The notes under the pieces were generated by a model. The model was not told the DNA's origin, did no database searches, and saw only the letters and a program-made list of their open reading frames with translations. Made by a program: the position numbers and the translations under genes. Shown here one piece after another: positions 12,584-21,364 of a stretch of 34,760 nt of DNA. The stretch is from a virus (taxonomy: Duplodnaviria > Heunggongvirae > Uroviricota > Caudoviricetes): positions 1 to 34,760 of the IMG/VR virus record IMGVR_UViG_2563366879_000001. The stretch is one strand, 5' to 3'. Position 1 is the first letter of the stretch; each line of letters opens with the position of its first letter.

Positions 12584-13269
12584 ATATCCAATATTTACAG
12601 TATGTCCGCGAGCAACTCATGGTGGCTACCGCTGATTTGAGCGGAGCAACGAAAGGCCAGCTTGAAGCCTGGCTGGAGCATGCACAATTTGATACTGGTA
12701 CATACAAACGAAAGAAGCCACGCATTCTGGATGTGGTAACTGGCAAGATGATTACGCTGGATAATCCGCCGATTTCCGGTAAACAGTCGTACGCAAAAGG
12801 TTCATCTGTCGCCCTGGTCAGTTCTGTCGAGTTTTCAACCTCTTCATGGCAGCGTGCGATTTTGTCTCTCGATGAACATCAGAAAGCGTGGTTGTTGTGG
12901 AGTTACAGTGAAAATATTCGCTGGGAGCATCAGGTTGCCATAACGCAGTGGGCATGGAGCGAGTTTAAGGCGCTGTTAGGTACAAGAAAAATTGCCAGTA
13001 AGACACTGGAACGCTTAAAGAAGTTGATTTGGTTGGCGGTACAGGATGTGAAGAACGAGCTGGCAGGGCGTGAGACCTATGAATACCAGGAGCTTGCATT
13101 ACTGGTGGGAGTGACATCAAAAAACTGGTCTGAGACATTTACTGAACGCTGGGTTGCAATGAAGCACATTTTTCTACAGCTTGATAGCCAAGCTTTATTG
13201 CTTGTAACGAGAACACGTTCAAAACAAAAGGCGACATTTTCACGGCAAAATATTGCAAAACTGGATTAA
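12580..13269 (+). CDS. Putative late-gene antiterminator Q (not lambda-Q-like and not QuuD-like)
   Basis: 229-aa ORF from the ATG at 12580 with AGGAG ribosome-binding site. Called from position only: directly after rusA/ylcG, followed by a ~310-bp leader with two terminator hairpins and then the lysis cassette. I do not recognise the sequence. Confidence 0.5.
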   Translation: MNIQYLQYVREQLMVATADLSGATKGQLEAWLEHAQFDTGTYKRKKPRILDVVTGKMITLDNPPISGKQSYAKGSSVALVSSVEFSTSSWQRAILSLDEHQKAWLLWSYSENIRWEHQVAITQWAWSEFKALLGTRKIASKTLERLKKLIWLAVQDVKNELAGRETYEYQELALLVGVTSKNWSETFTERWVAMKHIFLQLDSQALLLVTRTRSKQKATFSRQNIAKLD

Positions 13270-13336
13270 AAAGCATATATTTCATGTAAATCTGATATTT
13301 TGCCAATGTTGTACGCACTGGCAGTAATCCAAATTC

Positions 13337-13375
13337 AAGCCCGAGGTTTAAAGCCTTGGGCTTTTCTGTTTCTGG
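13337..13375 (+). terminator. Rho-independent terminator in the late leader (candidate tR-prime)
   Basis: Hairpin AAGCCCGAGG-TTTAAAG-CCTTGGGCTT (one G-U pair) followed by the U-rich tract TTCTGTTTCTGG. Confidence 0.55.
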
Positions 13376-13450
13376 ACGGTGAGTAGCCTTCCAACCTACC
13401 CCAGTCAGGGTGTCTTCAGCTGTTGAGTTGATATTGCTTAACCCTCTGTT

Positions 13451-13476
13451 GCCAGCTACATGCTGGCTTTTTTATT
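13451..13476 (+). terminator. Second rho-independent terminator-like hairpin in the late leader
   Basis: GCCAGC-TACAT-GCTGGC followed by TTTTTTATT. Confidence 0.5.
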
Positions 13477-13578
13477 CCAGGCTTGCGGGGAGCATCAACT
13501 CCGTGCTTTGTCGTTAAATTACCCCGAGAGCCTGATTTCTGACATTTAACGTCCCGGCCTTTTGTCGGCGACGAAACA

Positions 13579-13896
13579 TTGGCTATTCATATGCACGAAA
13601 AAGAGAGCCTTGCCGGAGCGTTCTGGCTCGTTTTGCTGATCATCGCAGGTTGGGGCGGTCTGGTCCGCTACCTGATAGATGTGAAGCAGAGTAAAGCAAC
13701 GTGGAGCTGGATAAATGCTCTGGCTCAGATAGTGGTATCGGGATTCACCGGTGTTATTGGTGGCCTGATCAGTATCGAAAGTGGATTCAGCATTTACATG
13801 ATTCTCGCGACGGCGGGGATTAGTGGTGCGATGGGTTCGGTTGCACTGACGTACTTCTGGGAACGACTGACAGGGGTGAAAAATGCAAAATCTTAA
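13579..13896 (+). CDS. Holin (three predicted transmembrane helices; two candidate starts, Met1 and Met5)
   Basis: 105-aa ORF with three hydrophobic segments, overlapping the start of the endolysin gene. Not lambda-S-like in sequence; called from position and topology. Confidence 0.7.
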   Translation: MAIHMHEKESLAGAFWLVLLIIAGWGGLVRYLIDVKQSKATWSWINALAQIVVSGFTGVIGGLISIESGFSIYMILATAGISGAMGSVALTYFWERLTGVKNAKS

Positions 13897-14359
13897 TCCT
13901 CAGCGTAAAGCTTTCCTCGATATGTTGGCGTGGTCAGAAGGAACGGATAACAGCAGACAGCTAACCCGCAATCACGGCTACGACGTTATTGTAGGTGGTG
14001 AGCTATTCACGGATTACTCCGATCATCCTCGCAAACTTGTCACGCTAAACCCGCAACTTAAATCAACCGCAGCTGGACGTTACCAGCTTCTTTCCCGTTG
14101 GTGGGATGCCTACCGCAAGCAGCTTGGCCTGAAAGACTTCTCTCCGAAAAGCCAGGACGCTGTGGCATTGCAGCAGATTAAGGAGCGTGGCGCTTTACCG
14201 ATGATTGATCGCGGTGATATCCGTCAGGCTATCAATCGTTGCAGCAATATCTGGGCGTCATTACCCGGTGCAGGTTACGGTCAGTATGAGCATAAAATCG
14301 GTGACCTGATTGCCCGATTTAAAGAGGCTGGTGGGGTGGTAAATGAAGCTGACTTATAA
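13883..14359 (+). CDS. R: Endolysin, lytic transglycosylase (lambda R)
   Basis: 158 aa, ..NPQRKAFLDMLAWSEGTDNSRQLTRNHGYDVIVGGELFTDYSDHPRKLVTLNP..., near-identical to lambda R as remembered. Confidence 0.95.
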   Translation: MQNLNPQRKAFLDMLAWSEGTDNSRQLTRNHGYDVIVGGELFTDYSDHPRKLVTLNPQLKSTAAGRYQLLSRWWDAYRKQLGLKDFSPKSQDAVALQQIKERGALPMIDRGDIRQAINRCSNIWASLPGAGYGQYEHKIGDLIARFKEAGGVVNEADL

Positions 14360-14870
14360 GCTGGTTATCGCTACATTCTTCTTCTCTGTCTTCGGTGGAC
14401 TCGTCTGGTCAGTAAACCATTACCACAGCAAATATCAGACAGAAAAGTTACGTGCGGATAAAGCCGAAGGTGAGGCTGAATATCAAGGGAAAGTGATAGC
14501 TAATCAGGCATTCAACTTCAATCGATTCAATCAGGTTGCAGAACATGCCAACAGGCTTAATTCCCTGATCGATACCAGCACCGAAGAAACCGTAATCGAA
14601 TATCGGGAGATTCTCCGCCGTGAAAAAAGCTGTGATCTGTCTGTTCCTGCTGATGTCGCTGGTGAGCTGCTCGACTACGCGAACCGTTTACGTACCGGGG
14701 CAATGCACACCGATTCCGGTAACGCTGACGCAGCCAGTGATAGCACCGCTTCCACCAGTTCGTTGACGTATTGCCAGGCTGTTCTCTGGATTAAGCCGCT
14801 GCTGGCCGCTATTGAAAAAGCGAATAACCAACTGGCTGGTATACGTCAAATCGAGCAGGACCGAAAATGA
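14343..14870 (+). CDS. Rz: Inner-membrane spanin (Rz-like)
   Basis: 175 aa with an N-terminal transmembrane helix and a coiled-coil periplasmic domain; overlaps the end of R; contains an embedded +1-frame lipoprotein gene. Confidence 0.85.
   Translation: MKLTYKLVIATFFFSVFGGLVWSVNHYHSKYQTEKLRADKAEGEAEYQGKVIANQAFNFNRFNQVAEHANRLNSLIDTSTEETVIEYREILRREKSCDLSVPADVAGELLDYANRLRTGAMHTDSGNADAASDSTASTSSLTYCQAVLWIKPLLAAIEKANNQLAGIRQIEQDRK
14620..14766 (+). CDS. Rz1: Outer-membrane lipoprotein spanin (Rz1-like), embedded in Rz in another frame
   Basis: 48-aa ORF from GTG not in the supplied track (VKKAVICLFLLMSLVSCSTTRTVYVPGQCTPIPVTLTQPVIAPLPPVR): lipobox LVSC and a proline-rich mature peptide. Confidence 0.7.
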   Translation: MKKAVICLFLLMSLVSCSTTRTVYVPGQCTPIPVTLTQPVIAPLPPVR

Positions 14871-15241
14871 GTCTTATCTCTTTGTGCGGTTAAATCACTA
14901 AATATCCACGCACCAGGATAAAACTATGAAGCAATAAGCGGATATACCGCAGCCGATAGGCAATGCAGCAGTAGTGATGTTGCTCCGAGTCGCGTAATGG
15001 CGAACCTGTGTAGTGATGGGTAAGGGTTCACAGATAACAATAAGCTCCGGTAGGGCAGCTCGATCGCCAAACGCGTGCCGGTTATCAGCGGCGATGATGC
15101 GACAGCACTTTAAGGTCATGAGCGTGGCTACTCTGGGAAGTGGCAAAGAGTTACAGAAGCCATTCTCTCGGAGGCTTCGATGATGTTCTATGGGGCAATA
15201 ACATATCTTGATGGTAAAATCCCCATTTTAAGGGGTAGGGT

Positions 15242-15604
15242 ATGTTCAATTGGATGGTTGTACACGAAGAGTCAGTAAAAATTTTTGCTTCAGCACTTTT
15301 AACAGTTGGCTCAATAGTACTGGCTATTAGAGTTAAGAATCTTATCAGCCTGATAGCTGATGTTCTAAATGCGCATGAGAAAGCCATCGGCGAAATAAAA
15401 GAGATTAGTGAAAACCCAAAGTGGGACAATTCAAGGCGCTTAAGTGCTGCTGTTGATGCGGGGCTTAAAAACGGCATGGTCGTGGCAATAGAAAGGTTTA
15501 ACTCCAGAAAAGGTGCCGCTCTGCTTGTCATTGGGTTCGGTTCACTGGCTTTAGGCGGCGGACTTAACTTTGCACTTGGGATATTGACAAAAATTTATAG
15601 CTAA
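15242..15604 (+). CDS. Hypothetical membrane protein (one hydrophobic helix near each terminus), gene 1 of the AT-rich accessory block
   Basis: 120-aa ORF with a purine-rich ribosome-binding site (AAGGGGTAGGG) before the ATG. Hydrophobic segments FASALLTVGSIVLAI and AALLVIGFGSLALGGGLNFALGIL. No recognisable homology. Confidence 0.5.
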   Translation: MFNWMVVHEESVKIFASALLTVGSIVLAIRVKNLISLIADVLNAHEKAIGEIKEISENPKWDNSRRLSAAVDAGLKNGMVVAIERFNSRKGAALLVIGFGSLALGGGLNFALGILTKIYS

Positions 15605-15721
15605 CAGATCCGTTACCGGGCGGTTTGAGCTATATTCGTTACAAAGCATTACAGCAGGCATTCACTGAGTGTCTGTAATAATGATAAAATGTAAGCCACT
15701 ACAGCTCATTATGAGGTAATA

Positions 15722-16147
15722 ATGACTCCAGAACAGATTTCATTCTGGTCAATGGTGGCTACATTTCTATCTGCTCTTGCTGCTGCCGTATCAGCTTTCT
15801 TTACGTTCAAGACGGTAAACTCGTGGAAAAAAGAGGCAAAACATGAAGGGCAAAGGGAGTTCAAAAAGGCTGTTTATCATTACTATGAGATGGCTCAAGT
15901 GCTTCCTGATTTTGCTTTCAGACAGGATAGACAAGAGAAAAAAGATGATTTTTTAGCTTTTAAAAAAGCTAAAAATGATTGTTCTTATGCATGGGCAATG
16001 ACAGAAGGCTCGATCAAAAATCCTCAGGTTATTCGATTATGGTCCGAGTTGGAAAAGGCTCATCATGAATACATGTTAATCAGGCAGCCTATAACGATGG
16101 TGCAGGATAAAGCAGCAGAAATAATCAATTCACACTTCCTAAATTGA
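15722..16147 (+). CDS. Hypothetical protein with N-terminal transmembrane anchor, gene 2 of the accessory block
   Basis: 141-aa ORF, ribosome-binding site GAGGTAA. N-terminal hydrophobic helix (FWSMVATFLSALAAAVSAFFTF) followed by a charged, Lys/Glu-rich soluble domain. No recognisable homology. Confidence 0.5.
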   Translation: MTPEQISFWSMVATFLSALAAAVSAFFTFKTVNSWKKEAKHEGQREFKKAVYHYYEMAQVLPDFAFRQDRQEKKDDFLAFKKAKNDCSYAWAMTEGSIKNPQVIRLWSELEKAHHEYMLIRQPITMVQDKAAEIINSHFLN

Positions 16148-16392
16148 TTCAGTAAATTATCACTGGAGCCTCGATGTTCGCTATTGTGGGGCATTTTTAA
16201 TTTGCAACACTCATAAGGAAGCTCAGTGTCACCGTGTGACAGCTAATCATGCACTTGTTAGAGCCAGCGGGGAGCAGAGACAAACGGGGGAGGGCGAGCT
16301 TAAGGGTATGGGCGAGGCACTGGGGAAGTTGGGCCAGTTTTTACAGCATTTTGGCCTTACGATATTAATAATCAAATAACTAAGAGGTCTTT

Positions 16393-16785
16393 ATGCCATT
16401 TAATGTTTATTTTTTACAGGGGATAGCTGCTGTTACAGCAATCGCAGCGAATACCAGAAGTTTTACACGCAAAAATGATCCAAATATTTCTCCTGCAATT
16501 GTTGCTCTTACTAGGGCTGTTCATGAGACTGAGATGTATTTTAGAGATAGAATGCGCGGGAAAGAGCGTGATTTTGAACGTGAGGATGCTCTGTCAAGAC
16601 TTTGGTCAGATGCCGAAGAGCCGGTAAGATTAATCGAGCCACGCCTTTCAGAACTTTGTCGTTATAAAGCAAGATATTGGCTTTTCCCTGAAACATATAG
16701 CCGTGCACAGGTAATAGAATTACACATAACTTTAGAGGGTATGAATGCTGCTCTTCAACGTCTCCGTGATATACCTGCAGAGTAG
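16393..16785 (+). CDS. Hypothetical protein, gene 3 of the accessory block
   Basis: 130-aa ORF, ribosome-binding site AAGAGG. Preceded by a ~245-bp non-coding spacer. No recognisable homology. Confidence 0.5.
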   Translation: MPFNVYFLQGIAAVTAIAANTRSFTRKNDPNISPAIVALTRAVHETEMYFRDRMRGKERDFEREDALSRLWSDAEEPVRLIEPRLSELCRYKARYWLFPETYSRAQVIELHITLEGMNAALQRLRDIPAE

Positions 16786-16924
16786 TGATTGAAAGGCATA
16801 CCTAGAGACTGGTTAAATTAAAGCTTTACTGATAAGCAGCTTACTAAAGAACTTACAGCAATTGCAGATAACCATATAGAGAAGGGCTATTATCATCTAG
16901 GGTCCTTTTCAGTCATCCGAACTG

Positions 16925-17120
16925 TTACGGGGCGGAAGGCGCGCGGGTTTTCGCTATTTATGAAAATTTTCCGGTTTAAGGCGTTTCCGTTCTTCTTCGT
17001 CATAACTTAATGTTTTTATTTAAAATACCCTCTGAAAAGAAAGGAAACGACAGGTGCTTAAAACCAGCTTTTTGGCCTCTGTCGTTTCCTTTCTCTGTTT
17101 TTGTCCGTGGAATGAACAAT
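16925..17120. other. cos region: variant cosN (12-nt cohesive-end equivalent GGGCGGAAGGCG at 16930..16941) plus a lambda-identical cosB ahead of Nu1
   Basis: From 16942 onward (CGCGGGTTTTCGCTATTTATGAAAATTTTCCGGTTTAAGGCGTTTCCGTTCTTCTTCGTCATAACTTAATG...) the sequence matches the lambda left end as remembered. The 12 nt before it differ from lambda GGGCGGCGACCT at 5 positions. Confidence 0.75.
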
Positions 17121-17638
17121 GGAAGTCAACAAAAAGCAGCTGGCTGACATTTTCGGCGCGAGTATCCGTACCATTCAGAACTGGCAGGAGCAGGGAATGC
17201 CCGTTCTGCGGGGTGGTGGCAAGGGTAATGAAGTGCTTTATGACTCTGCCGCCGCCATAAAATGGTATGCCGAAAGGGATGCTGAAATTGAGAACGAAAA
17301 GCTGCGCCGGGAAGTTGAAGAACTGCGGCAGGCCAGCGAGACAGATCTCCAGCCAGGGACTATTGAGTACGAACGCCATCGACTTACGCGTGCGCAGGCC
17401 GACGCACAGGAGCTGAAAAATGCCAGAGACTCCGCTGAAGTGGTGGAAACCGCATTCTGTACTTTCGTGCTGTCGCGGATCGCAGGTGAAATTGCCAGTA
17501 TTCTCGACGGGATCCCCCTGTCGGTGCAGCGGCGTTTTCCGGAACTGGAAAACCGACATGTTGATTTCCTGAAACGGGATATCATCAAAGCCATGAACAA
17601 AGCAGCCGCGCTGGATGAACTGATACCGGGGTTGCTGA

Positions 17639-17664
<26 letters not shown>
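17119..17664 (+). CDS. nu1: Terminase small subunit
   Basis: 181 aa, MEVNKKQLADIFGASIRTIQNWQEQGMPVLRGGGKGNEVLYDSAAAIKWYAERDAEIENEK..., near-identical to lambda Nu1. Confidence 0.97.

Positions 17665-21344
<3,680 letters not shown>

Positions 21345-21364
<20 letters not shown>

Follow-up and report, generated by a model that had tools for sequence, protein, structure and literature searches.

The window, by which we mean the whole stretch of 34,760 nucleotides analysed here, carries a lambda-type packaging region in which a cosB of the R3-I1-R2-R1 architecture lies at the lambda distance from the cohesive-end site and is followed by terS and terL. Its sites and genes are given below. Note that GGGTCCT is the established cosQ sequence, and that R2, R1 and the IHF site I1 were located by their known strings and by the motif repeated in the sequence.

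16900-16906, plus strand: cosQ, GGGTCCT, packaging-termination signal, identical to the lambda right end
16907-16926, plus strand: cosQ-cosN spacer, an unusual haplotype differing from lambda at 6 of 20 nt
16928-16943, plus strand: cosN, 16 bp, CG / GGGCGG AAGGCG / CG, from comparison with lambda, with nicks placed by homology
16936-16941, plus strand: right half of cosN, cos positions 7-12, AAGGCG, from the sequence and comparison with lambda
16942-17118, plus strand: cosB region, placed by lambda offsets
about 16979-16994: R3 (lambda bp 50-65)
about 17037-17051: R2, inverted, located by its known string and by a motif repeated in the sequence
about 17081-17096: R1, located in the same way
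17119-17664, plus strand: Nu1 (TerS), 181 aa, from comparison with lambda
17639-19564, plus strand: A (TerL), 641 aa, from comparison with lambda

A divergent cosN in a lambda-like cos region

The cosN 12-mer at 16930-16941 reads GGGCGGAAGGCG, with GTTACG upstream and CGCGGGTTTTCGCTATTTATG downstream. By comparison, bases 1 to 12 of lambda (NC_001416.1) are GGGCGGCGACCT, followed by the same CGCGGGTTTTCGCTATTTATG, and in the record of phage DE3 the lambda 12 nt are annotated as 'cos site'. In full, the window string is GGGTCCT-TTTCAGTCATCCGAACTGTT-ACG, then GGGCGGAAGGCG, then CGCGGGTTTTCGCTATTTATGAAAATTTT; the lambda record begins with GGGCGGCGACCTCGCGGGTTTTCGCTATTTATG and ends with GGGTCCTTTCCGGTGATCCGACAGGTTACG. 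The two cosN sequences differ at 5 of 12 positions (cos positions 7, 8, 9, 10 and 12), so that the right half is AAGGCG in the window and CGACCT in lambda. The left half (GGGCGG, 16930-16935) and the CG pairs by the two nick positions (16928-16929 and 16942-16943) are those of lambda. Thus, the original prediction, which had reported five mismatches to lambda concentrated in the right half, proved correct on both the lambda sequence and the difference: once the region was aligned to the lambda cos region, the reference had a different 12 nt. By homology with lambda, the top strand would be nicked at 16929/16930 and the bottom strand at 16941/16942. The two-fold symmetry of cosN is lower in the window (8 of 16 bp, against 10 of 16 in lambda), with the pairs 3/10 and 6/7 lost and the pair 4/9 gained; symmetry of the right half is functionally dispensable (PMC4669245).

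Around these five positions the site is very close to lambda. The interval from cosQ to the top-strand nick is 30 nt, the same offset as in lambda, and GGGTCCT was found at -30 +/-1 in 294 of the 300 cos loci that we fetched, a motif absent from every search pattern behind that set. Cos positions 13-129 (117 nt) have zero differences from lambda, and the interval between cosN and R3 is free of indels. The R3, R2 and I1 motifs lie at lambda offsets; R1 is out of register by 1 nt, because the R2-R1 spacer (17059-17075, cos positions about 130-146) has lost 1 nt compared with NC_001416, besides carrying four substitutions. Because of this deletion Nu1 starts at cos +190, not +191. The shorter R2-R1 spacer is common to many natural lambda-type cos sites, DE3 included. 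In summary, the window shares with lambda cosQ, the left half of cosN, the CG pairs, R3/I1/R2/R1, the cosN-R3 spacing, the DNA-binding domain of Nu1 and gpA, and is unlike lambda in five cosN positions, the R2-R1 spacer and part of the cosQ-cosN spacer. Of the 83 variant loci, just two have the left-flank haplotype of the window: the window itself and E. coli EcPF15.

The window prophage is defective

The prophage in the window is cryptic. Its int gene is split, transposase genes stand in place of xis to cII, and the portal gene is disrupted:

1-492: int, ORF with the catalytic domain
588-1127: int, ORF with the Arm-DNA-binding domain
1284-1622 and 1665-2132: IS3-type transposase fragments
2456-3532: IS110-family transposase
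3894-4790: O
4787-5488: P
19764-21364, plus strand: portal gene B, interrupted at about 20559 (lambda 3631) by the loss of 1 bp

The IS elements lie directly upstream of O and P, where the immunity/early region (xis-exo-bet-gam-N-cI-cro-cII) would be expected. The portal deletion changes CAGAACACG to CAGACACG and results in ORFs of 273 aa and 260 aa; the site is intact in three relatives, EcPF15 and two plasmid prophages. Since the deletion lies outside any long homopolymer, it may be a real inactivating mutation. Because the prophage is defective, this particular copy of cos is probably idle and may never be used. Even so, it carries the allele that is normal for its lineage.

Between P and the nin/Q region (5743-10731) the window carries a moron, and the same gene pair is found in the EcPF15 prophage. 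It comprises a 1302-aa inverse autotransporter, with an IAT_beta barrel, repeated Big_1/Invasin_D3 domains and DNA repeats at about 7054-7757, and a convergent alpha/beta hydrolase of the BD-FAE family (9688-10731, minus strand).

The terminase is conserved and does not co-vary with cosN

The window runs collinear with lambda 13-17835 from 16942 onwards, the two being 95.9% identical. As the original prediction had stated, the terminase adjoining cosN is lambda-like: gpA is identical to that of lambda over 641 of 641 aa, and Nu1 differs at 3 of 181 residues (V46A, A75T, L132I), with its N-terminal DNA-binding domain unchanged. Gene A has 25 synonymous and no non-synonymous nucleotide differences from lambda, a 25:0 ratio which indicates that gpA is under purifying selection.

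With five of the six right-half bases altered, including the one next to the bottom-strand nick, and with a less symmetrical cosN, the site could be imagined to be nicked with a different specificity, dependent on a terminase that had co-evolved with it, and so to define a new packaging-specificity class. This is very improbable given that the gpA of the window is 100% lambda. To this can be added a comparison of 33 variant and 30 lambda-allele loci, all with a full-length lambda-type gpA (98.8-100% identical to lambda), among which no residue separates the gpA of variant loci from that of lambda-allele loci, and two gpA sequences were found with both alleles. The unchanged DNA-binding domain of Nu1, the occurrence of the allele with three TerS/cosB classes (see below) and published data in which lambda TerL has no cosN specificity (PMC4669245) argue against it as well. 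Thus, the AAGGCG allele shows no co-variation with TerL.

The AAGGCG allele is widespread

The 24-mer GGGCGGAAGGCGCGCGGGTTTTCG was found in 77 IMG/VR contigs, which makes AAGGCG the second commonest cosN allele found in that collection. Of 5,426 complete E. coli genomes, 170 (about 3%) contain a 40-mer that spans the variant cosN. It is found there at 185 places, of which 16 are on plasmids, and the match reaches 99% or more in 152 records. The corresponding lambda-type 40-mer is present in 4,101 E. coli genomes at 7,414 places (19 on plasmids), a count inflated by the DLP12 remnants present in most E. coli. Plasmid places are thus 16 of 185 for the variant against 19 of 7,414 for the lambda type. 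In E. coli K-12 MG1655, DLP12 (locus L390, 4645-4656) has an exact lambda-type cosQ-cosN-cosB upstream of nohD, and its large terminase gene is represented by the pseudogene fragment aaaD only. Among 50,697 phage records the exact allele is found in two, Escherichia phage YDC107_1 (Ravinvirus) and Escherichia phage PhiR46_1. AAGGCG was also found beside a 99%-identical gpA in Escherichia sp. E1V33 in a protein-based survey.

The 83 variant loci, which include the window and annotated records and in which the 12-mer is invariant by construction, have 32 left-flank and 33 cosB haplotypes around the 12-mer, and they span at least three TerS/cosB classes, unrelated to one another. The first is the lambda type. 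In the second, marked by a CATGTCGG repeat, the N-terminal domain of TerS differs from Nu1, the C-terminus is lambda-like and a lambda-like gpA follows; the third, marked by GGTGGTGG (IMG/VR loci L005, L014, L058 and L065), has a different TerS-like protein. These cosB/TerS classes are also found with the lambda allele, and even one identical 45-nt left flank is common to the two alleles. The CATGTCGG class (IMG/VR loci L002, L004, L008 and L010) represents a domain-swap type of packaging specificity.

These data bear on the origin of the five changes. The original prediction had proposed, as one of two options, packaging-site decay in a cryptic prophage. The prophage is indeed cryptic, as shown by its split int, its IS3-type and IS110-type transposase genes in place of xis to cII and its portal deletion. 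Decay of the cos site itself, however, is a highly improbable explanation, which we consider effectively refuted: the allele is widespread, with the same 12-mer in the 77 IMG/VR contigs and 170 E. coli genomes next to many different flanks, and the terminase is intact. In support of this, all of the testable variant loci have intact Nu1 and A genes (29 of 29, compared with 20 of 25 lambda-allele loci, among the matches listed; IMG/VR loci with a lambda-type R3/cosB and enough downstream sequence). Moreover, the changes fall within 6 bp, the next 117 nt are unchanged and every position known to matter is spared, and in K-12 the lambda 12-mer persists in DLP12, a truly cryptic element with a truncated terminase. 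A decayed cos would show private, scattered mutations and broken packaging genes; the window shows neither at its cos and terminase genes.

A sequencing or assembly error in the window has next to no probability as an explanation. Nothing specific speaks for it, apart from the 1-bp portal deletion elsewhere, which could itself be an error, and the identical block is found in hundreds of independent assemblies. Since the identical 12-mer recurs in many independent records, it is neither an artefact nor a product of chance. The other option of the original prediction, a real variant nicking site, is supported by this recurrence, with cleavage itself predicted by homology.

Apparently intact elements carrying the allele

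The closest systems with a full set of genes are four linear-plasmid prophages, PhiR46_1, YDC107_1, pEC21Z151-46K and pCAVP367-48. Like the window, they have the identical 12-mer and a near-identical cosB, and their Nu1-A-W-B-C-D-E...J module is about 95-97% identical to that of the window. Unlike the window, which is of the integrase type and has a degraded left end and portal, they are protelomerase/ParAB plasmid prophages with full gene sets. PhiR46_1 is 46,290 bp long, with annotated telL/telR ends, ParA/ParB and a large primase-type replication protein, and its lambda-type module is complete (Nu1-A-W-B-C/Nu3-D-E-FI-FII-Z-U-V-G-T-H-M-L-K-I-J-lom-stf). Its record gives ECOR13 as the host, and PMC13190303, citing Brenes & Laub 2025, uses PhiR names for a panel of lambda-related temperate phages in plaquing assays. 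From the record and this description of the panel in another paper, we infer that PhiR46_1 is plaque-forming. pEC21Z151-46K and pCAVP367-48 encode a protelomerase and the replication protein CyRepA1 and have an intact lambda structural module, with a frameshifted J in one of the two. The linear-plasmid prophages with AAGGCG are 46-48 kb long and apparently intact.

These elements represent an N15-like linear-plasmid lineage (protelomerase, ParAB, CyRepA1/primase) which carries a lambda-type, not an N15-type, head-tail module together with the AAGGCG cosN. Records of this lineage include the E. coli plasmids NZ_CP101200.1 (locus L199) and NZ_CP145143.1 (L200) and the phage PV340565.1 (L299).

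The closest chromosomal relative is in E. coli EcPF15, in which the allele lies in a prophage at the argU/intD (DLP12) site. It is like the window in the 66 nt around cosN, which are identical and include the rare left spacer, and in the region from O and P to the inverse autotransporter and hydrolase. It is unlike the window in lacking the Q/lysis segment and most head/tail genes and in keeping the early region that the window has lost.

Occurrence of the variant in functional lambdoid phages, which the original prediction had named as an outcome that would change its view of the site, is largely what was found, in PhiR46_1 (with plaque formation inferred as above), in YDC107_1, in the apparently intact linear-plasmid prophages and in the 170 E. 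coli genomes.

The right half of cosN is polymorphic

The original prediction started from the premise of identical cohesive ends throughout the lambda group, a premise which is outdated. Lambda-like phages commonly differ in bp 7-12 of cosN (Feiss et al. 2015, PMC4669245): relative to lambda, N15 and phiD326 differ at positions 9 and 12 and Gifsy-1 at 8, 9 and 11, and cosQ, the left half and the CG pairs beside the nicks are conserved (PMC4669245). The definition of cosQ goes back to Wieczorek & Feiss 2001, as cited there. The cosN shared by N15, phiD326 and HK225 (GGGCGGCGTCCG) and that of Gifsy-1 are like the window in that all changes lie within bp 7-12 and the left half and CG pairs are kept. 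They are two or three positions off lambda, whereas the window is five. The window is also unlike N15 in having a lambda-type complex cosB and a lambda-identical TerL.

The survey of cosN variation among lambda-like elements suggested at the outset revealed at least 18 right-half alleles. It consisted of pattern scans in which the two major alleles were left out and of a protein-based survey run on species-representative genomes; the latter counts enterobacterial loci only, since its contig scan was dominated by lambda-DNA contamination. The right halves were distributed as follows, with the allele frequencies in IMG/VR being lower bounds.

IMG/VR, several contigs: CGACCT (at least 123), AAGGCG (77), CGTCCG (43), CAGCGG (19), CGTCCT (14), CGACCG (8), CAGACG (5), GAGCGT (3), CAGGCG (3)
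IMG/VR, singletons: GAGGCG, GAGCAT, AGACCG, CGACCC, CGAACC
PhiR70_1 (PV340577.1): AGACCT
Other Enterobacteriaceae: CAGCGT, CAGACT, CGGCCT

CGTCCG is the allele of N15 and HK225. In the protein-based survey, which is free of cos-pattern bias, ACG followed by GGGCGG and the next CG are conserved across genera and the six bases between them vary. Nearly all right halves have 4-5 G/C of 6, a constancy which suggests selection on duplex stability and not on sequence. The alleles are linked by chains of single steps, such as CAGACT-CAGACG-CAGGCG-AAGGCG, and a stepwise path through such observed intermediates fits the origin of AAGGCG better than an inversion. A small inversion of the right half was considered and rejected, since the reverse complement of CGACCTCG is CGAGGTCG, not AAGGCGCG.

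The contaminated contigs are low-coverage contigs, some of about 48.4-48.5 kb, in which gpA is 100% lambda and which are assigned to unrelated bacteria such as Shewanella, Pseudomonas, Oceanobacillus, Bradyrhizobium, Kitasatospora and Chromatium (loci L313-L319, L323, L324, L335 and L338 among them). Their presence in public genomes almost certainly reflects contamination with, or spike-in of, lambda DNA.

A text search of the literature, with figures outside its scope, found the 12-mer and its reverse complement in no paper, which is weak evidence that the allele has not been described.

A probable functional allele of the lambda-type cohesive-end site

Taken together, the AAGGCG cosN is very probably a natural and functional variant of the lambda-type cohesive-end site, a reading based on comparison of sequences and on the published behaviour of lambda terminase. 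In that system, many right-half mutations are reported to have a minimal phenotype (Xu & Feiss 1991 and Hang et al. 2001, as cited in PMC4669245). The left-half change G2C costs about 10-fold in yield; its symmetric counterpart, C11G, is without phenotype (PMC4669245). This left/right asymmetry of cosN is attributed to cosB (Hang, Catalano & Feiss 2001, as cited in PMC4669245). Lambda terminase nicks right-half mutants efficiently because TerS at R3 of cosB positions TerL (PMC4669245). Similarly, TerS at R3 (bp 50-65, the coordinates used here) anchors TerL for nicking between bp 12 and 13, and the sequence specificity of the TerL nuclease centres is not high (Feiss and colleagues 2022, PMC9026076). 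Whether the terminase is that of lambda or an N15 hybrid, cosN-lambda and cosN-N15 support equal bursts, and the burst of lambda TerL on cosN-N15 is undiminished (PMC4669245). Note that the published tolerance data concern one to three right-half changes, and that the window allele has five at once, including cos position 12, which adjoins the bottom-strand nick. All of the changes in the window fall in the half tolerated by the terminase model (PMC4669245, PMC9026076), and the sequence-sensitive elements (GGGCGG, the CG pairs, cosQ and the cosN-R3 spacing) are all kept.

We propose that Nu1 would bind R3, R2 and R1, with IHF at I1, and that the terminase (Nu1 and gpA) would assemble on cosB. 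The R3-bound TerS would position TerL, which would then place the bottom-strand nick 12 bp rightward of that on the top strand, mostly whatever the bases at 7-12. Cutting would leave 12-nt 5' overhangs, GGGCGGAAGGCG and CGCCTTCCGCCC, which are mutually complementary. The nick positions and the 12-nt overhang are placed by homology with lambda because both phage records with the allele, PhiR46_1 and YDC107_1, are written in prophage (tel-to-tel) or plasmid orientation. The two ends of a packaged chromosome would be complementary because both come from one cos sequence. The predicted duplex free energy is -18.6 kcal/mol for the variant and -19.0 for lambda, with a GC content of 10 of 12 in both. 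With matched ends and equal duplex stability, the right half would therefore be free to drift, and AAGGCG may be one of many drifted right-half alleles.

Matched ends are not expected between the two alleles. With 5 of 12 mismatches, the window overhang falls outside the lambda cohesive-end compatibility group: the predicted pairing of a lambda with a variant end is limited to 6 contiguous bp, at -9.5 instead of -19.0 kcal/mol. Since a lambda left end and a variant right end would pair over those 6 bp only, hybrid chromosomes should cyclise poorly, and incompatibility of the AAGGCG end with lambda-type phages is likely. In published experiments, an end mismatch of 2 nt lowers the viable yield about 4-fold (PMC4669245).

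This raises the alternative that the right halves are discrete, frequent alleles kept by selection as cohesive-end incompatibility groups which block viable chimeras, with AAGGCG at an advantage on linear-plasmid prophages whose hosts also harbour lambdoid prophages in the chromosome. The weak pairing of lambda and variant ends and the cost of even a 2-bp mismatch are consistent with it, as are the over-representation of the variant at plasmid places, the flanks and cosB classes common to both alleles and the right halves of mostly 4-5 GC of 6. However, the single-step network of alleles fits neutral drift and hitch-hiking, and the plasmid enrichment may reflect one successful lineage, measured against a lambda-type count inflated by DLP12 remnants. 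We therefore regard selection of this kind as unlikely. That the right halves act as incompatibility 'barcodes', with AAGGCG kept because it blocks viable hybrids, and perhaps end-to-end joining, with co-resident lambda-type prophages or their remnants, is similarly a speculative reading to which we give a small chance.

The functional, drifted allele that we favour is an apparently undescribed and unsurprising member of a known polymorphism, albeit more divergent than the known ones. Given the known functional asymmetry of cosN, a five-base departure from lambda beside a lambda-identical terminase is to be expected and does not point to decay. Prophage and terminus predictors keyed to the lambda 12-mer will miss AAGGCG cos sites, and neither lambda ends nor lambda-cos oligonucleotides would anneal to the DNA of AAGGCG phages. 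Poor viability is predicted for recombinant chromosomes with a lambda cos at one end and an AAGGCG cos at the other. The allele is unusually frequent on lambda-headed linear-plasmid prophages. If the barcode reading were true, the right halves of cosN would constitute a mechanism of genetic isolation operating at the level of 6 bp.
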